DNA of 32,000 nt from Desulfocapsa sulfexigens DSM 10523 (GCF_000341395.1 NC_020304.1:1680001-1712000); one strand, 5' to 3'; shown: positions 3,594 through 13,516, counted from the stretch's first letter. Made by a program: numbers and translations. Notes: generated from the sequence alone by a model not told the origin.

Positions 3594-4697
3594 ATGAAGA
3601 AAAAACATCTTGTTCTGGCTGGTGCCGGTCATGCCCATATGGTAACCATGGCTGGCATTGCAGATTTCAGAAGCCTTGGTCATGAAGTGACGGTTGTCGG
3701 TCCATCGGATCATCATTACTATTCAGGGATGGGGCCAGGAATGCTTGGTAGCGGCTATGACCCCGAGGAAATCCGTTTTGCCGTGAGGCGTACTGTTGAA
3801 AGTCAGGGCGGAACCTTTATCCGGGATACGGTAACGGGGGTTGCCCCGGGCAGGCGTGAGTTGCATCTGGAGTCAGGCCAGGTTGTTTCCTATGATGTGC
3901 TTTCCTTTAATACCGGTAGTCATGTGGACATGCCGGATATTCGAGGAAATGCAAACCGAATATTCACCGTTAAACCCATTGAACGCCTGTACCAGGCTCG
4001 GACAGAGATTTTATCTCTGTCGCAACGGCAGGATGTGACCGTTGCTGTAATTGGTGGTGGGCCGGCGGGTGCTGAGGTGGCTGGGAACGTAGCGGAGCTT
4101 CTTGAGAAGACCGATTATCCTGCAAAGGTGTTTTTGTTTGCCGGACGTGGTCTGCTTGCAAAATTTCCTGCGGCTGTGCGCAGCACCAGTCGTGGGATCC
4201 TTACTAAATATGGAGTGGTTATCAGGGAGGAGGGGCATCTGCTGTCTATTACCGATAATCTTCTGCAGTTTGATTCAGGATCGACTGAGCTCGCCGATTT
4301 TGTCATTCTGGCAACTGGGGTACATCCTTCTCCTTTTTTTCGGAAGGCGGGCCTCCGCACAGGAGAAGACGGAGGGCTACTGGTGAACAAATATTTGCAA
4401 TGTCCCGATTATCCAGAAATTTTTGGTGGCGGGGATTGCATCTGGTTTGAGGATCAACCTCTTGCCAAAGTGGGTGTCTATGCGGTACGTGAAAATCCCG
4501 TACTCTTTCACAACCTGAAGGCATTCCTTCAGGGAGATGCACTACAGTCCTTTGATCCCGGTGGGGATTATCTTCTAATTTTTAACCTCGGTCATGGTCA
4601 GGGTGTTTTGCGTAAAAAGTGGTTTCAGATATCGGGGAAAGTTGCGTTCTGGGTTAAAGATTGGATAGACAGGAAATTTATGCGCACTTTTCAGTAA
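3594..4697 (+). CDS. FAD/NAD(P)-dependent pyridine nucleotide-disulfide oxidoreductase family protein (NDH-2/SQR-like fold)
   Basis: N-terminal Rossmann motif HLVLAGAGHAH, second dinucleotide motif VAVIGGGPAGAEVAG, and C-terminal FAD motif IFGGGDC. Confidence 0.85.
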   Translation: MKKKHLVLAGAGHAHMVTMAGIADFRSLGHEVTVVGPSDHHYYSGMGPGMLGSGYDPEEIRFAVRRTVESQGGTFIRDTVTGVAPGRRELHLESGQVVSYDVLSFNTGSHVDMPDIRGNANRIFTVKPIERLYQARTEILSLSQRQDVTVAVIGGGPAGAEVAGNVAELLEKTDYPAKVFLFAGRGLLAKFPAAVRSTSRGILTKYGVVIREEGHLLSITDNLLQFDSGSTELADFVILATGVHPSPFFRKAGLRTGEDGGLLVNKYLQCPDYPEIFGGGDCIWFEDQPLAKVGVYAVRENPVLFHNLKAFLQGDALQSFDPGGDYLLIFNLGHGQGVLRKKWFQISGKVAFWVKDWIDRKFMRTFQ

Positions 4698-4744
4698 GAA
4701 CAGGACGTTGTGGGCTTAGTAAGAAAAAAAGAGGGAGAGTTGAA

Positions 4745-5083
4745 ATGAAGGTTGACTGGCTGTATTTCCGTAAAGGTTGAACATCGTGCACTAAAGCCCA
4801 GGGGGCCCTTGAGCTGGCAGATGTGGAGATAGGTGAAATTGCTGATGCGCGAAAAAATGTGATTAAGGCTGATGCTGCCTGGGATATTATAAAGAATATT
4901 AAAACGTTGCATGTTGGAAAGGGTAAGAAAAATGTCGTTTTTGCTCCCGATGCGGATTTCAGAGATGAAATACTGAAGGTTACTCTTGGTCGTACAGGAA
5001 ACCTGAGAGCACCTGCCTTACGTATCGGAAAACGTATGTATGTTGGCTATAATGATACAATGTATGAGGAGTTGATCGGATGA
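4745..5083 (+). CDS. ArsC/Spx-family redox protein, predicted selenoprotein (in-frame TGA 4778-4780; U-T-S-C motif)
   Basis: ATG 4745 with SD GAGGGAGAG (4731-4739). It reads MKVDWLYFRKG-TGA-TSCTKAQGALE..., in the same frame as and contiguous with track ORF 4823..5083. The TGA sits where the first Cys of the Spx-type CxxC lies. The stop overlaps the next start (ATGA at 5080-5083). Confidence 0.8.
4796..4818 (+). promoter_or_regulatory. Candidate SECIS hairpin for the TGA at 4778
   Basis: GC(C)CAG / CTGGC stem with one bulged C and a 12-nt G-rich loop GGGGCCCTTGAG, starting 16 nt after the TGA. Confidence 0.4.
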
Positions 5084-5892
5084 ATTGGAAAAATCTGTTT
5101 GTCTCAGGGGCGAATATGAGCCCCGATGAAGTGAAGAACTTTATGGCTGAGCACAAGCCAGGGGACTACCAACTGCTCGATGTTCGGCAACCCAAGGAGT
5201 ATGAAAAGGAACATATCCCGGGAGCGCTTCTTATTCCTATAAAAGAGCTGAGAGAGCGTATAGGTGAGTTGGATCCAACGAAACCAACCTTTGTCTACTG
5301 ACATTCCGGAGTACGCAGCAAGGCTGCTGCGCAGTTATTACTGGCCGAGAATTTGCCTCATATTTACAATATGAGTGGCGGTATTATTGCCTATAATGGT
5401 GGGAAAGCTGTTGGTGATGAGGCCTTTGGCATGGAGTTTTTTGTCAGTGGGGAATTCAGCGATGTTTTTCGAATGAGTTACGCCATGGAAGAGGGGCTGC
5501 GGCAACTCTATTTGACCTTGAAGGATCTCTGCGAGGACAAAGAGGTCAAGGACCTTCTCGCCAGGTTGGCGCGGTTTGAAGAAGGGCACAAGGCAAAGTT
5601 AAAAGCCCTCTTTCCTGAGGTGGACGAAAAGGGTGGTGAGAACGACTTGAATACTCTTGAGGGGGGGTACAATAAACAGCAGCTACTCGATCATTTCAAA
5701 TCACGGGTTGTTGCCCAAAATGATGTTATTCAGCTTGGTATGATGCTTGAAACCCAGGCCTATGATTTGTACAGTCGTCTGGCCAAGAAAGCTGAAAATC
5801 CTGAGTCCAAAGAGTTCTTCGAGTTTATGGTTGGTGAGGAAAAACAGCATCTTGTTTTTCTCAGTAATGAGTATGATAAAGTCCTGGGCTAA
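5080..5892 (+). CDS. Rhodanese-domain protein with predicted selenocysteine in the active-site loop (TGA 5299-5301), fused to a C-terminal ferritin/rubrerythrin-like diiron domain
   Basis: Track ORFs 5080..5301 and 5353..5892 are in the same frame and separated only by TGA. Read-through gives ...KPTFVY-U-HSGVRSKAAAQLL..., which is the rhodanese C-x-x-G-x-R-S loop with U at the Cys position. The C-terminal half carries E / ExxH / E / ExxH (AMEEG, FEEGH, MLETQ, GEEKQH). Confidence 0.85.
5314..5331 (+). promoter_or_regulatory. Candidate SECIS hairpin for the TGA at 5299
   Basis: Perfect 7-bp stem CGCAGCA / TGCTGCG with loop AGGC, starting 13 nt after the TGA. Confidence 0.6.
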
Positions 5893-5900
5893 AACCATTT

Positions 5901-5925
5901 ATGCCCGACAGTCTCTGTCGGGCAT
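5901..5925 (+). terminator. Stem-loop ending the oxidoreductase/selenoprotein operon
   Basis: Perfect 11-bp stem ATGCCCGACAG tct CTGTCGGGCAT, 9 nt after the stop. There is no clean T-run, so terminator efficiency is uncertain. Confidence 0.55.
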
Positions 5926-6118: not shown

Positions 6119-6162
6119 TTGACCTGCTAAGGATTACTACTTACAGTTAGAAATTATTATCG
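6119..6162 (+). promoter_or_regulatory. Sigma70-like promoter with an overlapping Fur-family-type AT-rich box upstream of the Fur/PerR-like gene
   Basis: TTGACC (6119-6124), a 17-nt spacer, then TACAGT (6142-6147). This is followed immediately by TAGAAATTATTATCG, whose reverse complement cGATAATAATTtct resembles a Fur/PerR half-box. Confidence 0.45.
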
Positions 6163-6174
6163 TAAGGAGGGGAT

Positions 6175-6828
6175 ATGCAATTACGAATGACAAACCAGCG
6201 CGAGATGATCCTTCGGGAACTCAAGAAAAGCAAAAAACATCTAACGGCTGATGAGCTATACGAGCGGGTGAAAAAATTTATGCCGCGTATCAGCCTGGCA
6301 ACGGTATACAGGAATCTTGAGATCCTGTCCGATGCTGCAATGATCCGTAAACTTGAGATCAGTGGGCGGCAGAAACGCTTTGACAGTGAACTTGAAGATC
6401 ATGACCACATTTACTGTATCCAGTGTCATCGAATAGAGAATCTGGATATTGGGGAAAATGAGGTGACCCTGGGTGCTGTTGACACAAAGGGCTATGAAAT
6501 CACCGGACGTCGTTTGGAGGTGATTGGTTTGTGTCCCAAGTGTCAGGAAAAACAAACAAAAACAAATATAAAAGCTAAGAAAGGAGAGACTACAATGGCG
6601 TGCGGGTGTAAAAAAGGTGAGTTGAGTGGTGAACAGAAACAGGTCCTTGAGGCAATGGCTAATTGTGAGGGGCCCTGTGCTTCAAAAGATATTGCAACAG
6701 CAACTGGTCTTGAGACTAAACAGGTAAGTTGTCGGATCACAGCGCTCAAGAAAAAAGGATATGTGGACAGTCCGGTACGCTGTAAGTATGGGATTACCAG
6801 TGAAGGCAGGGCTGCCCTTAAGGGTTGA
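6175..6828 (+). CDS. Fur-family (PerR-like by context) metalloregulator with an in-frame 77-aa Cys-rich winged-helix C-terminal extension
   Basis: Residues 1-127 form a complete Fur-family protein (HTH, HDH, CIQC, CPKC). The frame stays open into MACGCKKGELSGEQKQVLEAMANCEGPCASKDIATATGLETKQVSCRITALKKKGYVDSPVRCKYGITSEGRAALKG. That segment has its own SD (AAGGAGAG 6580-6587) and ATG (6595). Confidence 0.85.
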   Translation: MQLRMTNQREMILRELKKSKKHLTADELYERVKKFMPRISLATVYRNLEILSDAAMIRKLEISGRQKRFDSELEDHDHIYCIQCHRIENLDIGENEVTLGAVDTKGYEITGRRLEVIGLCPKCQEKQTKTNIKAKKGETTMACGCKKGELSGEQKQVLEAMANCEGPCASKDIATATGLETKQVSCRITALKKKGYVDSPVRCKYGITSEGRAALKG

Positions 6829-6848
6829 TACGTATTTTAAGGTGTAGC

Positions 6849-7424
6849 ATGAGCAGTTTGAAAGGCAGTAAAACAGAAAAAAACATTCTTGTGGCTTTTG
6901 CCGGGGAATCGCAGGCAAGGAACAGATATTCGTATTATGCCAAGGTGGCTAAAAATGAGGGATATGTTCAGATTTCTGGGATTTTTAGTCGTACCGCAGA
7001 GCAGGAGCGGGCACATGCGAAAACCCTTTTGAAATTTCTTGAAGGCGGTGAGGTTGAAATTACAGCATCCTATCCTGTGACGCCTCCAGGTACTACAGTA
7101 GAGAATCTCCAGAATGCTGCCTCAGGAGAAGAACATGAATATAAAGCCATGTATCCCGAGTTTGCTGCGATTGCAGAAGAGGAAGGTTTTCCTCATGTGG
7201 CTGCAGCCATGCGTTCCATAGCTGTAGCTGAAAAAGAGCACGCAAGGGTTTATCGACGCCTTATTTCAAACATTAAGGCGGGTGCAGTGTTTGAGAGGGA
7301 TGTGGAGGTAACCTGGTATTGCGCAAAATGCGGTTTTGTCCATAGGGGGCTGAAGGCGCCGAAAAAATGTCCTGCCTGTGCCCATTCCCAGGCTTATTTT
7401 GAGATTCTGGTAGATAATATATAA
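6849..7424 (+). CDS. rbr: Rubrerythrin (diiron four-helix bundle plus C-terminal rubredoxin-like FeCys4 domain)
   Basis: N-terminus LKGSKTEKNILVAFAGESQARNRYSYYA, ExxH motifs (EQERAH, AEKEHA), and C-terminal CAKCG...CPAC. ATG 6849 follows AAGGTG. Confidence 0.95.
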   Translation: MSSLKGSKTEKNILVAFAGESQARNRYSYYAKVAKNEGYVQISGIFSRTAEQERAHAKTLLKFLEGGEVEITASYPVTPPGTTVENLQNAASGEEHEYKAMYPEFAAIAEEEGFPHVAAAMRSIAVAEKEHARVYRRLISNIKAGAVFERDVEVTWYCAKCGFVHRGLKAPKKCPACAHSQAYFEILVDNI

Positions 7425-7565
7425 GCCTTGTGGAAAGCCTCTTTATTTTTTTTGAAATGTCCCGACAGGGGATTTTCGTCCCACAAAGGGGTATTGAAAA
7501 AAAGTACCGGCTCTCTACGTTGCCGGTGTAAGTAGATTACTAATTAATAAAACTGTTGGAGATAT

Positions 7566-8162
7566 ATGATGAAACCTTTGGTAACCAATGAAGCCCCTGA
7601 CTTTACTGCGACTGCGGTTATGCCCGACAACACCTTTAACGAAGCGTTCAAACTGTCCGATATGCGGGGTAGATATGTACTGCTGTTTTTTTATCCCCTG
7701 GATTTTACCTTTGTTTGTCCGTCCGAAATTCTCGCTTTCAACTCTGCCGTGGAGCAGTTTAAGGAGAAGAATTGTGAAGTAGTCGGGGTTTCCGTTGATT
7801 CGCATTTCAGCCATCTTGCCTGGAAGAATACGCCAATCAACCAGGGTGGTATCGGTAATATTCAGTTTCCTCTGGTTGCTGATCTGGATAAATCTATTTC
7901 TGAAAATTATGGTATTCTCTTTGGTGGCACCATTGCCCTTCGTGGTCTCTATCTGATTGACAAAGAAGGAATTATTCGTCATCAGGTTGTCAATGATCTT
8001 CCCCTTGGCAGAAGTGTTTCCGAGGCCATGCGTATGCTTGATGCAATTCAGTTCGTTGAAGAGCATGGTGATGTCTGTCCTGCTAACTGGAGTAAGGGGG
8101 ATGATGCCATGGTTCCGACGGCAGAGGGTGTTGCTAAATATTTAACCGATCATATTGCGTAG
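7566..8162 (+). CDS. ahpC: Typical 2-Cys peroxiredoxin (AhpC/Prx1 type)
   Basis: Peroxidatic motif DFTFVCPSE and resolving VCPANW. SD GGAG at 7557-7560. Confidence 0.95.
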   Translation: MMKPLVTNEAPDFTATAVMPDNTFNEAFKLSDMRGRYVLLFFYPLDFTFVCPSEILAFNSAVEQFKEKNCEVVGVSVDSHFSHLAWKNTPINQGGIGNIQFPLVADLDKSISENYGILFGGTIALRGLYLIDKEGIIRHQVVNDLPLGRSVSEAMRMLDAIQFVEEHGDVCPANWSKGDDAMVPTAEGVAKYLTDHIA

Positions 8163-8303
8163 GGTTTTGTTTGGTTGGGTGTTTTTAGATAGATGCAGGA
8201 AGTGCTGGAAAAGCGGTGTTTGAAGCAGTAGACTTGTTTTTGACGGTGTGGGTTCTTTCTCTTTGGATAGAACTGTAACTTTTATCAAAATGGAGGCAGT
8301 ACT

Positions 8304-8678
8304 ATGGCTAAAAAATTAGGTGTATATAAGTGCAATATCTGTGGGAATGTGGCTGAAGTTGTCCACGCTGGAGCAGGGGATATGAGTTGTTGCGGTGCTC
8401 CCATGGAGCTACTCAGTGAAAACAGTGTGGATGCTGCTCAGGAAAAGCATGTTCCTGTGGTTGAGAAAGTTGCGGGTGGTTTTAAGGTAACCGTTGGAAG
8501 TGTTGATCATCCCATGACTGAGGATCATTATATTGAATGGATAGAACTTATTGCCGGTGATTCCTGCTATAGGCAGTTTCTGAATCCTGGTGATGCTCCA
8601 CGGGCTACCTTTCAGGTGGCTGCTGACAGTGCGGTGGCACGAGCTCACTGCAATCTGCACGGTCTCTGGAAGGCATAA
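8304..8678 (+). CDS. dfx: Desulfoferrodoxin (2Fe superoxide reductase)
   Basis: N-terminal desulforedoxin module [13 protein letters not shown]...[11 protein letters not shown] centre II ligands (KHVP, HPM, C..HGLW). SD GGAGG at 8292-8296. Confidence 0.95.
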
Positions 8679-8715
8679 AGATAACCCTATAGAAAAAAAT
8701 TTCAGGAACAGGTCG

Positions 8716-9132
8716 ATGTCGTTGCCAGAAGAGATGTATCAGTGTCAAATGGTGAACTGTGGTTACATTTACGATCCGGATAAGGGGGATCGTAAGAGTA
8801 AAATTAAAAAAGGTACGCAGTTTAAAGACCTTCCTGAAGGATGGAGATGCCCTGTTTGTGGGGCAACTGTAAAAGCGTTTAAACCACTGGCAGGACCCGG
8901 TTCAGTGCATGCCGAAAATGCATCTGCAGCTCCTGCCAAGACTGAAACTGAAATAAAAGGAACAGCGAGTGATATGAAAAAGTATAGATGCGATGTTTGT
9001 GGATATATCTACGACCCGGATGTGGGAGATGATGCTGCAGGGATTCCTGCAGGGACATCCTTTGATGACCTGCCCGATGATTATGAGTGTCCTGTCTGCG
9101 GAGCAGGGAAGGACGAATTCAGCGAAGTGTAG
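8716..9132 (+). CDS. Tandem (two-domain) rubredoxin
   Basis: Two rubredoxin modules: [13 protein letters not shown]...WRCPVCG and [11 protein letters not shown]...YECPVCG, joined by an A/P/T/E linker. The start could alternatively be ATG 8734. The track start 8590 overlaps dfx and is rejected. Confidence 0.9.
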
Positions 9133-9144
9133 GAATTTATTTAC

Positions 9145-9175
9145 AGGGGCCTCCATCATGGTGGCCCCTTTTTTA
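9145..9175 (+). terminator. Rho-independent terminator after the rubredoxin gene
   Basis: AGGGGCC ... GGCCCCT stem (11-nt loop) followed by TTTTT. Confidence 0.8.
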
Positions 9176-9260
9176 CAACGCTTGTAGTTTGCCTGGTTGT
9201 TGATGGCAGGCTTGAGTGTCTTCTTACGTCCTTGATTTTTCTTGAAAAATAGGTGTATAT

Positions 9261-9608
9261 ATGAAAAAGATTCTCCTTGTGGCCTTTCAGGGGCAGCCCA
9301 TGTGTTTTATTCATGTTTTGCTCAATGGACTTGAGTTGAAAACAGCTGGGCACGAATGTAAGATTATAATAGAAGGTGAGGCCACTACCTTGATCCCTGA
9401 AATAATAAAAGAATCGCATTTTCTTCACGGACTCTACAATCAAGTGAAGGAAGCGGGGTTGATTGAAGGCGTCTGTAAAGCATGTTCTATGAAAATGCAG
9501 GTCTTTGAACAAATAGAAAAAACAGGCCTTCCCTTGCTTGATGACATGTCTGGTCATCCTGGGATGGTGAAATATATTGAAAAGGGCTTTGAAATAGTAA
9601 ATTTCTGA
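9261..9608 (+). CDS. Small DsrE/YchN-like fold protein (function unknown; Cys-containing)
   Basis: 115 aa. It starts MKKILLVAFQGQPMCFIHVLLNG..., which is typical of small DsrE-like alpha/beta proteins, and has a CKAC pair. SD AGGTG lies 6 nt upstream. It sits 27 nt upstream of roo. Confidence 0.6.
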   Translation: MKKILLVAFQGQPMCFIHVLLNGLELKTAGHECKIIIEGEATTLIPEIIKESHFLHGLYNQVKEAGLIEGVCKACSMKMQVFEQIEKTGLPLLDDMSGHPGMVKYIEKGFEIVNF

Positions 9609-9635
9609 TTTTAAATTTTTAAGGAGGACAGGGAT

Positions 9636-10835
9636 ATGAATCCGGTTAAACTTATCGAAAATGTTTATTGGGTCGGTGCTGTGGACTGGGACGTTCGTGA
9701 TTTTCACGGATATTCTACTAACAGAGGTACCACGTATAATGCATTTTTAATTATGGATGAGAAGATTACTCTCATCGATACCGTAAAAAAATCGTGTAAA
9801 AACGACATGCTTGCCAGGATTAAGGAAATAGTTGATCCTGAAAAGATTGATTACATCGTAGTTAATCACGTGGAAATGGATCATTCCGGAAGTCTTCCAG
9901 ACATGGTCGAACTCATTAAGCCTGAAAAAATCATCTGTTCAAAGATGGGTGAGAAGGCGTTGGTGCAACATTTTCATCATGAAGACTGGCCCTATCAGAT
10001 TGCAAAGCCTGGCGAAGACGTGAGTCTTGGAGAAAAAACACTTTCTTTCCTCGAAACACGGATGCTGCACTGGCCCGATTCCATGTTTACCTATCTTGTA
10101 GAAGACCAGATACTTTTCTCTTCTGATGCCTTTGGTGAGCACCTTGGTACCAGTGAGCGTTTTGATGATGAAGTGGATCAGGCAATTCTTCTGGAAGAGC
10201 TTACAAAATATTATGCCAATATCCTGACCCTCTATTCACCACTGGTAAAGAAGTTGATTGCCAAGGTGAAGGAAATGAATTTACCAATCAAGATGATTGC
10301 TCCGGATCATGGTGTTATATGGCGTAAAAATCCAAACATGGCGATTGAAGCCTACGATAAGTGGAGCCAGGGAAGAGGTGATGGTAATGCCCTTGTGGTT
10401 TATGATACCATGTGGCATTCCACAGAAGAAATGGCCAAACGTGTCGGAGCAGGATTGCAGGATGAAGGTATTTCCTACCAGCTTGTTAATCTGCGTTATA
10501 ATCATCGCAGTGATGTTATGCGTGATGTGCTGAATGCCAGTGCTATTATTCTTGGCTGTCCTACATTGAATAATGGTTTGCTGCCTCGAATGGCTGGATT
10601 CCTGATGTATATGCGTGGATTACGTCCTCTTAATAAAGTTGGTGCTGCTTTTGGCTCTTTTGGCTGGTCAGGTGAGTCTGTAAAGTTACTCAACGAAGCT
10701 ATGACGGATATGAAATTTGATATTGTAGATGATGGACTGAAGGTGAAGTACGTCCCTGAAGATGCTGATTATCAGCAGTGTGTTGAACTTGGCCGGAAAG
10801 TGGGCCAGGCAATTAAGGCAAAACAGGCAGAATAG
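9636..10835 (+). CDS. roo: Flavodiiron protein (rubredoxin:oxygen oxidoreductase / FprA type): metallo-beta-lactamase-like diiron domain plus flavodoxin domain
   Basis: Diiron motif NHVEMDHSG, C-terminal flavodoxin-like domain (ALVVYDTMWHSTEEMA...), SD AAGGAGG. Confidence 0.95.
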   Translation: MNPVKLIENVYWVGAVDWDVRDFHGYSTNRGTTYNAFLIMDEKITLIDTVKKSCKNDMLARIKEIVDPEKIDYIVVNHVEMDHSGSLPDMVELIKPEKIICSKMGEKALVQHFHHEDWPYQIAKPGEDVSLGEKTLSFLETRMLHWPDSMFTYLVEDQILFSSDAFGEHLGTSERFDDEVDQAILLEELTKYYANILTLYSPLVKKLIAKVKEMNLPIKMIAPDHGVIWRKNPNMAIEAYDKWSQGRGDGNALVVYDTMWHSTEEMAKRVGAGLQDEGISYQLVNLRYNHRSDVMRDVLNASAIILGCPTLNNGLLPRMAGFLMYMRGLRPLNKVGAAFGSFGWSGESVKLLNEAMTDMKFDIVDDGLKVKYVPEDADYQQCVELGRKVGQAIKAKQAE

Positions 10836-10843
10836 GATATTTC

Positions 10844-11167
10844 ATGAAAATACATATTGATAAGAACATTGTAGAGTTTATTCCCGAGAACGAGCAGGAA
10901 ACTGCCTCCATGGAAACTCTATGGAGAGTCGTTGTTGATTGTGCTGCTGATAATAAGCGGATGACTGCCATCGGAGAGTATATCCCTTCCAAGCAAAATC
11001 TTGCCAGGTTTCACATTGAAGGCGTTTCAGCAACAACTCAGTATACTGAAGATAAAGCCGTGGAGGAGTGTACCGTTATCTGCACCACCTGTAATAAATA
11101 TATGGCCTTAAAGGGCGGTGATGCAATACCTGTATGCTGCGGGCGCCCCATGGAGACAACTGATTGA
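10844..11167 (+). CDS. Hypothetical protein with a C-terminal desulforedoxin-type CxxC...CC module
   Basis: The C-terminus ICTTCNKYMALKGGDAIPVCCGRPME parallels the Dfx N-terminus in this same window ([26 protein letters not shown]). The N-terminal roughly 75 aa is not recognisable. It lies 8 nt downstream of roo. Confidence 0.75.
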   Translation: MKIHIDKNIVEFIPENEQETASMETLWRVVVDCAADNKRMTAIGEYIPSKQNLARFHIEGVSATTQYTEDKAVEECTVICTTCNKYMALKGGDAIPVCCGRPMETTD

Positions 11168-11193
11168 TCTGAAGTATTTGTAAACGTTTGTAA

Positions 11194-11231
11194 TAAAAAA
11201 AAGCCGATGGAATTATCCATCGGCTTTTTTT
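11194..11231. terminator. Bidirectional rho-independent terminator between convergent operons
   Basis: A-run, then GCCGATGGA atta TCCATCGGC, then T-run. Confidence 0.85.
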
Positions 11232-11248
11232 GCCTACCTTTACTGCCG

Positions 11249-13516
11249 TTATCCTCTCAAAAAGTTCAATGCCGAACCGGCCTTAAACCAGTCAATCTGC
11301 TCCTCGTTAAGGGAGTGATTCAAAGTTATTTCCGATGTTGTTCCATCATCATGATTCAACCGTGCAGTGATGGTTGAACCAGGTTTGATTTCAGTAATAC
11401 CCGTTAGATCTATAGTGTCACCCTCCTGAACCAGGTCATAATCAGCAGCATCTGCAAAGGTGAGAGGCAGGATACCCTGTTTCTTCAGATTGGTTTCATG
11501 GATGCGGGCAAATGAGCGGGTAATCACAGCTCTACCACCCATATGGCGTGGACACATGGCGGCATGTTCACGTGATGACCCTTCTCCGTAGTTTGTGTCA
11601 CCTACAACGACCCAGTTTTCACCTGCTGCTGTATACTCTCTCGCAATCGTGTTGTATTCCTGTAATTCACCGGTGAGTTGATTCCTTGCATTACCGGGTT
11701 CACCGGTAAATGCATTTACAGCACCACTGAACATGTTTCCTGAGATGTTATCCAGATGGCCTCTGAAACGGAGCCACGGGCCAGCTGGAGAAATATGATC
11801 GGTGGTACATTTTCCTTTGGCCTTCAACAGTAAATGCAGTCCAGTAAAATCTTTACCGTTCCAGCGGTCAAACGGAGTGAGCAGAGAAAGACGTTCAGAG
11901 TCTGGAGAAACCTGTACCGTAATATTGGTTCTGTCGTCAATTGGCGCGAGAAAGCCTTTATCATCGCGAACAAGTTTCAGGCGCGGTGTTTCATCCACTT
12001 TTCCTGGAGGGGTGAGAGTAAATGTGGATCCATCGGCTGCTGTATATTCTGTGGTAAACGGATTCACGGTGAAACTTCCAGTCATGGCATAGGCAAGACA
12101 GGTTTCAGGACTACCGATGAAAGCACTGGTGCCGGAGTTTCCGTCGTTTCGTTTGGGAAAATTACGATTATAGGATGTGACGATGGAGTTGCGGAATCCT
12201 TCCTCTATACCCTCACGGTTCCATTGACCAATGCAGGGGCCACAGGCATTGGCAAGCAGGGTAGCCCCAATGGCTTCGAGTTTGGCAAGCTGGCCATCCC
12301 GTTCTATGGTGGCTCGAATCTGCTCAGAACCAGGGGTGATGAGCATTGGGATCTTTAATTTGGCACCATGGGCGGCAATTTGCTCTGCCATAACGGTGAT
12401 TCTTCCCATATCCTCATAGGAAGAGTTGGTGCATGATCCCACCAGGGCATAGGTGATGTTTTCAGGATGTCCGCCATCTTTGACGTATTGGGTCATATTG
12501 GCAACGGTGCAGGCACGATCCGGGGAGTGGGGGCCTACAAGATGTGGTTCAAGGGTGGACAGGTCTAGCTCAATCACCTGATCAAAATAATTCTCGGGAT
12601 TGGCGAGTACTTCATCGTCTGCCCGGAGAAGGTGCTTGTATTTATCTGCCACCTGAGCAACATCCTCACGGTTACAGGCTGCAAGGAATGTTGCCATATG
12701 TTCGTCGTAGGGGAAGGTGGAGGTGGTAGCACCAAATTCAGCCCCCATGTTGCAGATAGTTGCCTTTCCTGTGCAGGAGATGGTGTCAGCACCGGGGCCA
12801 AAGTACTCAAAGACACGGTTTGTGCCTCCGGAACAGGTGAGTTTGCCAAGAAGATTAAGGATAACATCCTTTGGGGCAGCCCATCCCTGAAGTTCACCTG
12901 TGAGGTGAACACCTATAAATTTGGGATGCAGTACTTCCCAGGGAAGTCCCACCATTACATCCACGGCATCGGCACCACCAACTCCCGAGGCAAAGGCTCC
13001 AAGGCCACCGGCATGTGGTGTGTGTGAATCGGTACCCAGCATCATTAAACCTGGAAAACCGTACTGCTCAATCACCACCTGATGAATAATTCCCGCTCCC
13101 GGCATCCAGCAGCCAAAGCCATAGCGTTGGGATGCTGAGGAGAGAAAATCGTAGACTTCTCTGTTTTCGATGCGGGCAATATTGAGATCACTTTCGGCAC
13201 CCTTCTGGGCCCTTATGAGATGATCACAGTGAACGGTGACCGGAACTGCGGCTTCATTCTTGTCAGCAAGCATGAACTGAAGCACGGCCATCTGAGCGGT
13301 AGCATCCTGGAGAGCAACGCGATCAGGTCTGGTTTTGATATAAGATGAGCCGGCAACAAGCTCGGCATCATCAGCATTGTCCAGGTGTCCATAGAGGACT
13401 TTTTCACCATAGGTGAGGGCTCGGCCCATACGTTTACGGACGGTTGCAATATTTGCATCCATCTTTTTATATGTGGCTTCAATAAAAGCAGGTGTGGAAT
13501 CAACCGATGTGTTCAT
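11249..13516 (-). CDS. acn: Aconitate hydratase (about 755-aa, mitochondrial-type aconitase)
   Basis: 4Fe-4S ligand motifs GTDSHTP, GSCTNSS and NACGPCIGQW. Swivel domain at the C-terminus. SD GGAG. Confidence 0.95.
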   Translation of the reverse strand: MNTSVDSTPAFIEATYKKMDANIATVRKRMGRALTYGEKVLYGHLDNADDAELVAGSSYIKTRPDRVALQDATAQMAVLQFMLADKNEAAVPVTVHCDHLIRAQKGAESDLNIARIENREVYDFLSSASQRYGFGCWMPGAGIIHQVVIEQYGFPGLMMLGTDSHTPHAGGLGAFASGVGGADAVDVMVGLPWEVLHPKFIGVHLTGELQGWAAPKDVILNLLGKLTCSGGTNRVFEYFGPGADTISCTGKATICNMGAEFGATTSTFPYDEHMATFLAACNREDVAQVADKYKHLLRADDEVLANPENYFDQVIELDLSTLEPHLVGPHSPDRACTVANMTQYVKDGGHPENITYALVGSCTNSSYEDMGRITVMAEQIAAHGAKLKIPMLITPGSEQIRATIERDGQLAKLEAIGATLLANACGPCIGQWNREGIEEGFRNSIVTSYNRNFPKRNDGNSGTSAFIGSPETCLAYAMTGSFTVNPFTTEYTAADGSTFTLTPPGKVDETPRLKLVRDDKGFLAPIDDRTNITVQVSPDSERLSLLTPFDRWNGKDFTGLHLLLKAKGKCTTDHISPAGPWLRFRGHLDNISGNMFSGAVNAFTGEPGNARNQLTGELQEYNTIAREYTAAGENWVVVGDTNYGEGSSREHAAMCPRHMGGRAVITRSFARIHETNLKKQGILPLTFADAADYDLVQEGDTIDLTGITEIKPGSTITARLNHDDGTTSEITLNHSLNEEQIDWFKAGSALNFLRG

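Follow-up and report, generated by a model that had tools for sequence, protein, structure and literature searches.

A predicted selenocysteine rhodanese fused to a ferritin-like domain and coupled to an ArsC-family selenoprotein in Desulfocapsa sulfexigens

Introduction

Rhodaneses that carry selenocysteine (Sec) in the active-site loop have been catalogued, by bioinformatics only, as forms 1-5 of the prokaryotic selenoproteome, mainly from Deltaproteobacteria/Desulfobacterota (PMC13188914, PMC9312934), and they are abundant in the Olavius delta-1 symbiont (PMC1976440). Here we analyze a 32,000-nt stretch of the Desulfocapsa sulfexigens DSM 10523 chromosome (the window; all coordinates count from its first letter), in which one gene is predicted to encode a Sec-rhodanese fused to a ferritin-like domain, directly downstream of, and coupled to, a gene for a second predicted selenoprotein of the ArsC family. 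The fusion protein shares with the catalogued Sec-rhodaneses a PF00581 domain with Sec in the active-site loop, and its UxxG motif is common to forms 2 and 4. It also carries a ferritin-like domain, which the available portions of the catalogue texts (PMC13188914, PMC9312934, PMC1976440) do not mention. Form 1 differs by its UxxS motif and form 4 by its two-domain architecture (COG2897); form 2 (UxxG, single accession MBM9537886.1) was compared with the fusion by motif description only. Two other forms were considered and excluded. Form 3 (NF041203, LYCAU, CxU) has its Sec two residues after the catalytic Cys, whereas the Sec of the fusion replaces the catalytic Cys, and the fusion scores 18.6 bits against a cutoff of 115. 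Form 5 (TsoB, rhodanese/DsbD-like, NF045694, UxxxxU) gave no match at E<=0.01, and the fusion has a single Sec.

The second half of the protein invites comparison with a different set of enzymes. Like rubrerythrins and the rubredoxin-less ‘erythrin’ diiron peroxidases, it appears to combine an E/ExxH/E/ExxH site and two second-shell Tyr residues in a four-helix bundle, and its gene, like theirs, is found in the company of perR, ahpC, desulfoferrodoxin, rubredoxin and flavodiiron protein (FDP) genes. It is unlike rubrerythrins in lacking a rubredoxin domain (RUBY_RBDX was absent from the fusion protein in a Pfam scan) and in having a family-specific invariant E-G-G loop. The tethering of a single rhodanese to a redox center is itself familiar from the persulfide dioxygenase (PDO)-rhodanese fusions (BpPRF 5ve3, 3tp9) and from Npsr, CoADR-RHD and CoAPR. 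In those proteins, however, the partner is a mononuclear-iron metallo-beta-lactamase (MBL) fold or an FAD disulfide reductase, and all of them use Cys and no Sec. The ArsC-like partner belongs to NF041106, more distant members of which do not share its ATGA coupling to a rhodanese-ferritin gene, a feature specific to the Desulfobulbales module described here. Sec-rhodaneses are already known, while the ferritin-like fusion and its pairing with an ArsC-family selenoprotein are undescribed in the literature that we found. An earlier note on this stretch, made without database searches, had been aware of no functional description of such a fusion, and indeed our literature search yields no paper on a rhodanese-ferritin-like fusion. 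Searches combining rhodanese, rubrerythrin and Desulfobulbaceae, or using the locus tags UWK_01494-01497, found no paper either.

Results and Discussion

A probable selenoprotein gene

The earlier note proposed that two open reading frames (ORFs), 5080..5301 and 5353..5892, are a single gene in which an in-frame TGA encodes Sec at the catalytic position of a rhodanese, aided by a hairpin downstream, and that the resulting chain ends in a ferritin-like diiron domain. This core reading survived every test that we ran. The two ORFs do lie in one frame with the TGA alone between them (Table 1), and the read-through product of 270 aa, including U74, runs from ATG 5080, preceded by the Shine-Dalgarno (SD) sequence GAGGAG at 5066-5071, to TAA 5890-5892. 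It reads ...PTFVY-U-HSGVRSKAAAQLLL...NMSGGIIAY..., which is the loop that the note had described, and the C-terminal strand and helix of the rhodanese (NMSGGIIAY...) are encoded past the TGA. Termination at the TGA would leave, as had been argued, a 73-aa product lacking the active-site loop and the last beta-strand and helix of the rhodanese fold.

Table 1. Coordinates of the predicted features; those in the last row refer to the related locus L073.
Feature	Position	Strand	Remarks
Sec-rhodanese/ferritin-like fusion gene	5080..5892	+	271-codon frame, sole internal stop TGA 5299-5301
UGA predicted to be read as Sec (U74), catalytic residue of loop U-H-S-G-V-R-S	5299..5301	+	aligned with invariant catalytic Cys
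SECIS-like hairpin CGCAGCA-AGGC-UGCUGCG	5314..5331	+	7-bp stem, 4-nt loop, G at loop positions 2-3
Rhodanese domain, single-domain sulfurtransferase type	5122..5394	+	residues 15-105, Pfam PF00581
Ferritin-like four-helix-bundle domain	5464..5871	+	residues 129-264, Pfam PF02915, putative diiron site
ArsC/Spx-fold predicted selenoprotein, 112 aa, motif G-U-T-S-C	4745..5083	+	NF041106 member with U->C
UGA (Sec12) of ArsC-like protein	4778..4780	+	TGA in all 36 loci carrying the gene
SECIS-like hairpin of ArsC-like gene	4796..4814	+	RNAalifold covariation
FAD/NAD(P)H flavoprotein, 367 aa	3594..4697	+	Pfam Pyr_redox_2; 47 nt upstream of ArsC-like gene
O2/reactive oxygen species defense island	6825..10835	+	rubrerythrin, AhpC-type peroxiredoxin, desulfoferrodoxin, two-domain rubredoxin, FDP; syntenic in all close relatives
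GC-rich hairpin, 11 bp	5901..5925	.	9 nt past stop codon of fusion gene
L073 neighbors of Sec-form fusion gene	6911..8062, 10428..12062, 4119..5324 (+); 8249..8791 (-)		including rhodanese-MBL, reverse rubrerythrin, hybrid-cluster protein, FDP

Comparison with homologs is one of four independent lines of evidence for recoding, the others being recurrence of the TGA, the hairpin and the phylogeny. Full-length Cys homologs of 269-290 aa span the entire read-through length, and of the best 120 database matches the 98 that are full-length (~270 aa) all have Cys at the position aligned to the TGA. The remaining 22 are shortened gene calls that start just after the Sec position, using four different pseudo-starts (V/MRSKAAAQ, MLLAE, MPHIY and MKGG), and such disagreement immediately past a TGA is the signature of an unrecognized Sec codon. 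We fetched the DNA of three shortened homologs, and a scan of one genome per GTDB species gave 80 further loci. In 19 of these 80 genomes a TGA sits at exactly the U74 codon, and on either side of it the frame is open and the protein conserved; in the other 61 the codon is TGC or TGT. The downstream HSGVRSKAAAQLL...NMSGGI is kept in Sec and Cys forms alike, and the rhodanese loop consensus is intact on alignment. The survey of homologs suggested by the earlier note thus returned either full-length Cys genes or the same in-frame TGA, and for the separate ferritin-like gene that it had held out as an alternative there is no conserved start or SD.

That alternative nevertheless deserves to be stated in full. 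If the TGA were a real stop, a sequencing error or the mark of a pseudogene, the locus would encode a rhodanese fragment and a separate ferritin-like protein, as current RefSeq/GenBank annotation has it, and the lack of an Rfam SECIS match would agree. Yet the same TGA occurs in more than 20 independent assemblies amid in-frame coding sequence conserved on both sides, the 73-aa product would be catalytically incomplete, and the second part begins wherever gene callers happen to place it (V/MRSK, MLLA, MPHI or MKGG). In addition, RNA-level constraint on the downstream hairpin is confined to TGA forms, and a like pattern is seen in the neighboring gene, a member of a curated (seleno)protein family. 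On these grounds a two-gene arrangement is very improbable indeed, and we regard 5080..5892 as almost certainly a genuine selenoprotein gene, judging from its comparative sequence record.

The hairpin in question resembles a selenocysteine insertion sequence (SECIS). It is present as the earlier note had described it (CGCAGCA-AGGC-TGCTGCG), its first base being the 13th nt past the TGA and its loop beginning 22 nt after the U of the UGA, and this offset is kept in all TGA forms. A GCAGCA-AGGC-UGCUGC hairpin with a stem of 6-9 bp and a folding energy of -10 to -16 kcal/mol recurs at the fixed offset in all 21 distinct TGA-form sequences, and its 3' arm is degenerate in Cys forms. Over a 33-nt segment the mean folding energy is -12.3 kcal/mol for TGA forms versus -9.0 for Cys forms (Mann-Whitney p=1.8e-5). 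A synonymous-site test, in which the rest of each gene serves as an internal standard for relatedness, compared the six hairpin codons with 110 conserved-residue codons. Third-codon-position entropy in TGA genes is 0.16 bits in the hairpin codons versus 1.09 elsewhere (p=2.4e-4), while in Cys genes the corresponding values are 1.19 and 1.15 bits (p=0.49). A drop seen in TGA genes only argues for RNA-level selection on the hairpin only where the UGA must be recoded. The divergent Sec-form locus L073 uses other bases to build an equally good stem, GCAGCCG-GGC-CGGCUGC, shifted by one position. The bacterial SECIS criteria of Zhang & Gladyshev 2005 are said to call for a stable stem whose apical loop lies ~16-37 nt from the UGA and has G among its first positions, and the fusion-gene hairpin agrees with them.

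The distribution of Sec and Cys within the family suggests that the two have been exchanged repeatedly. A neighbor-joining tree contains a single Sec clade (Desulfocapsa) with the Cys forms L018 and L010/L011 nested within it. Apart from this clade, one more Sec form lies among Cys forms, namely L073 from Desulfosediminicola flagellatus (46% identical). On this tree L073 is a predicted independent Sec form and the nested Cys forms are apparent reversions. Repeated Cys/Sec exchange is typical of selenoprotein families. Indirect support for Sec decoding comes from the adjacent second TGA gene with its own SECIS-like hairpin and from the richness of the lineage in selenoproteins, one Desulfocapsaceae genome having 56 selenoprotein genes, which places it among the ten most selenoprotein-rich bacteria known (PMC13326102). 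The 32-kb window itself has no tRNA and no selA, selB, selC or selD, and in the literature we found no experimental report of selenium incorporation (75Se labelling, mass spectrometry) into the fusion protein. As a side observation, two different Sec-form copies of the whole locus, L007 and L009, 74% and 71% identical to the query, occur on separate contigs of one metagenome-assembled genome, Desulfocapsa sp. isolate MC-01, and are either paralogs or the product of a mixed bin.

Two active sites in one chain

The first domain is a rhodanese. Pfam places it at residues 15-105 of the read-through product with E=2.5e-19 and 70 bits (cutoff 22.2), as the earlier note had expected, and the loop U74-H-S-G-V-R79-S80 is of the six-residue sulfurtransferase type, not the CX5R phosphatase/arsenate-reductase (Cdc25/Acr2) type. 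We made an AlphaFold2 (AF2) model for the closest natural Cys ortholog, P0002, which is 74% identical (mean predicted local distance difference test score 77.9, predicted TM-score 0.61). In the model a helical bundle follows a canonical alpha/beta domain of the rhodanese type, and in a Foldseek search against PDB the rhodanese half matches single-domain rhodaneses with a TM-target of 0.8-0.9, reaching 0.90 for the 3iwh/GlpE type. No conserved second (resolving) Cys was found in the fusion, positions 84 and 151 being Cys in sub-clades only. The resolving thiol or selenol must therefore come from outside, and the ArsC-like partner is the obvious candidate.

The second domain is harder to name. 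The earlier note had called it rubrerythrin- or ferritin-like, and of this the ferritin-like diiron bundle stands, in the broad PF02915 class, while the identification with rubrerythrin proper does not. Pfam assigns PF02915 ‘Rubrerythrin’ to residues 129-264 (E=1.4e-13, 51.8 bits, cutoff 22.8), but the ferritin-like half has no match to the NCBIfam rubrerythrin family NF045767, on which the window's true rubrerythrin (6825..7424) scores 277 bits. The label ‘rubrerythrin’ was dropped after an hhalign comparison with that same protein aligned one half-bundle at a probability of 2%. Modelled with AF2, the last 179 aa of the window's fusion protein form four long helices, for which Foldseek finds generic bundles only (the COG1633 protein 2oh3, the Dps-like PA4880, 2fzf and bacterioferritin), weakly, at E-values of 2e-3 or worse and TM 0.5-0.6. 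The best sequence-profile match is 2fzf, with E=4.7e-9. The metal ligands that the note had pointed out are nonetheless all present and invariant in family alignments: E137, E167-x-x-H170, E224 and E254-x-x-H257. Second-shell Y144 and Y231, each seven residues past a Glu ligand, are invariant too, as is the loop motif E194-G-G. The predicted dimetal site thus has its full complement of six ligands, and it is most likely diiron.

Both sites are maintained across a family that extends well beyond the Sec forms. A profile search of 1.84 billion representative proteins gave 535 matches at E<=1e-30, and among the top 150 matches ~125 are single proteins of ~270-290 aa that cover the whole profile. 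Conservation was counted over 128 representative clusters that are 22-57% identical to the query. In the rhodanese loop the catalytic position is Cys in 124 of the 128 clusters, with G77 kept in 125, R79 in all 128 and S80 in 123. Each of the six metal ligands is kept in 124-127, the two Tyr in 123-125 and E194 in 125. These counts indicate that the two active sites are co-conserved across a large and old family. Its Cys form is not rare in Desulfobacterota: at 50% identity the family divides into well over 100 clusters, and it is represented in Desulfobulbales and in some Desulfovibrionales at least. The members with a named source belong to Desulfocapsa, Desulfobulbaceae, Desulfurivibrionaceae, Desulfopila, Desulfosediminicola and Desulfobaculum, and the family has automatic names only (‘rhodanese-like domain-containing protein’, or in IMG ‘rhodanese-related sulfurtransferase/rubrerythrin’).

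A coupled ArsC-family selenoprotein

The gene immediately upstream was missed by the earlier note and is probably the key to mechanism. Public annotation gives it as an 86-aa hypothetical protein, UWK_01495, that matches NF041106 only from model position 26. Extension to ATG 4745 yields MKVDWLYFRKG-U-TSC..., and with U replaced by C the protein reaches 123 bits, against a cutoff of 85, over positions 1-107 of the NF041106 model ‘ArsC family (seleno)protein’. Spx structures also align with it weakly over the full length, and the N-terminal CxxC position is part of the alignment. Its own hairpin shows compensatory double changes in three of six pairs among 34 distinct sequences analyzed with RNAalifold (UA/CG 15:14, AU/GC 20:8). 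In passing we observe that two homologs of this protein, P0139 and P0205, have Trp at the Sec position (..RKG-W-TSC..), the TGA having been translated with an alternative genetic code. This calling artefact hides selenoproteins in metagenome protein catalogues.

The two genes are closely tied. The ArsC-like gene adjoins the fusion gene in 21 of 23 loci with the Sec form and in 16 of 54 with the Cys form. Its stop, TGA 5081-5083, shares bases with the fusion ATG (ATGA), an overlap found in 30 of 30 scorable loci, with AGGAG embedded in the last codons of the ArsC-like gene. Outside Desulfobulbales (in Desulfobacter and others), more distant NF041106 members stand alone, in contexts that are unrelated and have no rhodanese neighbor. 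Coupled here and solitary elsewhere, these genes indicate that the conserved unit in this lineage is a module of two genes and two predicted selenoproteins. Considered jointly, a single selenoprotein gene, UGA recoding aided by a hairpin, fusion to a six-ligand dimetal domain and fixed translational coupling with a second selenoprotein together make a reading that we hold with great confidence.

Annotation of this module is correspondingly fragmented. In RefSeq the fusion gene appears as two proteins, the 73-aa WP_052326975.1 (‘rhodanese-like domain-containing protein’) and the 179-aa WP_167320727.1 (‘ferritin family protein’). The genome paper lists nine rhodanese genes, UWK_01496 among them (PMC3739170), and by its position beside UWK_01495 this is probably the rhodanese fragment. 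In the type strain DSM 10523 and ~20 related genomes, two adjacent selenoprotein genes appear to be mis-called as three or four fragments: the 73-aa ‘rhodanese-like’, the 179-aa ‘ferritin family protein’ and the 86-aa ‘hypothetical’. No curated model at present rescues the rhodanese-ferritin gene, although the conserved hairpin and the alignment would permit one to be built.

Gene neighborhood and proposed function

The surroundings of the module offer the first clue to what it might do. In Desulfocapsa the gene order runs EamA, dCache-MCP, FAD flavoprotein, ArsC-like, rhodanese-ferritin fusion, PerR-like regulator, and continues with rubrerythrin, AhpC, desulfoferrodoxin, rubredoxin, a 115-aa protein, FDP and a 107-aa protein, an order common to the Sec forms and the nearest Cys forms. 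In L073 the Sec-form fusion lies between an FDP gene and a rhodanese-MBL (PDO-like) fusion; genes for a hybrid-cluster protein (Hcp) and a reverse rubrerythrin are in the vicinity. In the Desulfopila loci L072 and L077 an FDP gene lies 2 kb upstream of the fusion gene, and in L088 (4394..5871, minus strand) and L089 (5101..5975, minus strand), from Desulfobaculum and one metagenomic lineage, a small rhodanese and a MauE/DoxX membrane protein are divergent from the Cys-form fusion. These contexts are suggestive of defense against O2 and reactive oxygen species combined with sulfur or thiol handling.

We tentatively propose, by analogy, that the fusion is a selenol- or thiol-fed diiron reductase of H2O2 or O2 that serves the oxidative-stress defense of these anaerobes, a function to which we would give somewhat less than even odds. 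The diferrous site would reduce peroxide (or O2) to water in the manner of rubrerythrin, with Sec74 of the rhodanese standing in for the rubredoxin domain and delivering two electrons. The donor state of Sec74 might be a free selenol, or a Se-S persulfide for which ambient sulfide or sulfane sulfur would be the source, and it would be oxidized to a selenenyl-sulfide or selenenic species while donating. The co-translated ArsC-like U-x-x-C protein could then resolve and re-reduce the oxidized Sec74, and in Desulfocapsa the upstream flavoprotein, a possible source of electrons, would tie the relay to NAD(P)H. Sec may have been favored over Cys for its faster nucleophilic and leaving-group steps and its resistance to over-oxidation, an advantage that fits with several Sec/Cys exchanges in the family. 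Repeated exchange at the nucleophile and a Sec-containing redoxin partner argue for demanding redox chemistry, not plain sulfur transfer. The proposal of the earlier note, a persulfide or perselenide carrier coupled to peroxide or O2 chemistry, is compatible with the gene contexts. Taking identity and mechanism as a whole, we put the probability of this best explanation at roughly 0.5. A bolder version, in which a two-selenoprotein relay drives the diiron center with selenol or persulfide electrons in place of rubredoxin or flavin and so represents an unrecognized class of peroxide/O2 reductase or persulfide oxygenase, seems to us rather unlikely.

Several observations count against this explanation. 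At the RNA level, the rhodanese hairpin shows no formal covariation in register, its stem being identical in 19/20 sequences; that invariance is itself why no covariation signal arises, and the synonymous-site test was used instead. No Rfam SECIS family was detected either, with only chance matches from the window at gathering thresholds and from 4740..5400 at E<=10, a null that is uninformative because bacterial SECIS elements are gene-specific. With respect to gene context, most of the distant Cys-form loci have unrelated housekeeping neighbors (RadA-like, CysZ, HemN, a pyridoxal-phosphate enzyme, peptidase S13) and no consistent partner, and the ArsC-like partner is missing from 38/54 Cys-form loci. 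The flavoprotein lacks a redox-active Cys pair (no CxxxxC). A search for a PerR-type operator that the flavoprotein/ArsC-like/rhodanese operon would share found none. The regions upstream of perR (~6135-6155) and ahpC (7527-7546) do have a TGTAAGTAG...TTAC element in common, which leaves no footprint across loci and is absent upstream of the flavoprotein and ArsC-like genes. As for the chemistry, the remote relationship of the ferritin-like domain to rubrerythrin makes peroxidase activity an analogy and not a family trait, and we know of no well-characterized natural precedent for electron delivery from a thiol or selenol to a diiron center. We infer the function of the fusion, including its metal identity, substrates and electron path, from domain content and neighborhood alone.

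The nearest solved relatives of the rhodanese half, domains joined to redox partners that work on persulfides, speak for the proposed reductase but would also suit a different use of the same parts. Besides the single-domain proteins, Foldseek matches the rhodanese domains of persulfide enzymes (Npsr 3nta, CoADR-RHD 3ict, CoAPR 8a56 and the PDO fusions 3tp9 and 5ve3) with the TM-target again at 0.8-0.9, root mean square deviations of 1.5-1.8 A over ~97 residues and 30-38% identity, matches that a sequence profile confirms. With its rhodanese half closest to the domains of PDO-rhodanese fusions and persulfide reductases, the protein could be a persulfide-oxidizing enzyme. In that case Sec or Cys would load sulfane sulfur from S0, polysulfide or thiosulfate, and the diiron site with O2 or H2O2 would oxygenate it to sulfite or thiosulfate, making the fusion a diiron analogue of the PDO-rhodanese proteins that clears O2 and sulfane sulfur together. 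Its hosts are sulfur-disproportionating or sulfide-oxidizing Desulfobulbales, the PDO-like gene next door in L073 and the rhodanese-DoxX/MauE pair in L088 and L089 would suit such a role, and so would the lack of a conserved resolving Cys. These hosts are, however, strict anaerobes for which O2-dependent sulfur oxidation would be merely a detoxification side-line, and a coupled U-x-x-C redoxin suits reductive recycling better than a cycle of sulfur oxygenation. The PDO-like neighbor in L073 would moreover be redundant, and to our knowledge no diiron persulfide oxygenase has been described. We consider persulfide oxidation unlikely.

The pairing of an iron-binding and a sulfur-carrying domain in one chain might also recall the repair or assembly of Fe-S clusters, with the ferritin-like domain giving iron and the rhodanese persulfide giving sulfur, like the diiron protein RIC/YtfE. 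Genes of oxidative and nitrosative stress accompany RIC-type repair proteins in other bacteria, and the surroundings here, including Hcp and FDP in L073, are of that kind. Against such a role, the invariant buried E/ExxH/E/ExxH set with its second-shell Tyr is typical of catalytic diiron centers and not of labile iron donors, no scaffold or cysteine desulfurase gene lies nearby, and Sec would be hard to rationalize for simple sulfur donation. We therefore find this role improbable.

The flavoprotein raises one more possibility. It scores 258 bits on TIGR03169, an oxidoreductase described as ‘N-terminal to SelD’, under the curated cutoff of 310, and by that threshold it is related to the family but does not belong to it. 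It lies upstream in 16 of 23 Sec loci and in 3 of 55 Cys loci, and its synteny is limited to the Desulfocapsa clade. Since the domain is fused to SelD in some organisms, and since the other upstream partner belongs to the ArsC family, the module might handle selenium, arsenic or other chalcogens, supplying selenide to SelD or detoxifying selenite or arsenate. The rhodanese would then carry perselenide or reduce a chalcogen oxyanion, with the ferritin-like domain as a redox sensor or accessory, and rhodanese has been described as able to carry selenium as perselenide (Ogasawara et al. 2001, as cited in PMC5877670). But the flavoprotein's sub-threshold score and narrow synteny speak against it, neither the window nor the related loci contain a selD, ars or selenite-reductase gene, and the strictly co-conserved diiron site is left unexplained. 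Trafficking of this sort appears less probable still than Fe-S repair.

The diiron reductase proposed above, fed by Sec74 and the ArsC-like protein, would have consequences beyond this locus. If the relay is true, sulfur-cycling anaerobes would use the sulfide or sulfane sulfur around them as fuel for detoxifying oxygen species, and the fusion would be the first natural case of an electron or sulfur hand-off from Sec or Cys to a diiron center inside one polypeptide. Should the link to O2 or peroxide hold, it would add a sulfur- and selenium-driven branch to the rubrerythrin/FDP/desulfoferrodoxin defense at oxic-sulfidic interfaces, whose anaerobes include relatives of the cable bacteria. Two of the Sec-form hosts are cultured, and the hypothesis is thus directly testable. 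For specialists in selenoproteins or anaerobe redox biology, the module and its co-conserved active sites merit experiment.

Further features of the locus

Behind the fusion gene, the GC-rich hairpin listed in Table 1 is the probable end of the operon. Termination there on the plus strand is plausible, the scored T-run sitting on the minus strand. Across the window, a search for further TGA-joined split ORFs returned noise only. At L090 a gene of the fatty-acid-hydroxylase family (membrane diiron) overlaps the start of the fusion gene by 4 nt.

The PerR/Fur-family regulator that follows (6175..6828, plus strand) has 217 aa, with a FUR domain at residues 2-115 and an additional C-terminal winged-helix domain (MarR_2/TrmB/Mrr_N matches at 150-216), and it is of equal length in related Desulfocapsa. 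Two DNA-binding domains are unusual for a protein of the Fur family. Farther downstream, the FDP gene is flanked by two ORFs on the plus strand, 9261..9608 (115 aa) and 10844..11167 (107 aa), for which no Pfam or NCBIfam family was found. Their identity across Desulfocapsa loci is 77-97%, and the 115-aa protein also has homologs that are encoded just upstream of the Cys-form fusion genes in L076, L083 and L084.

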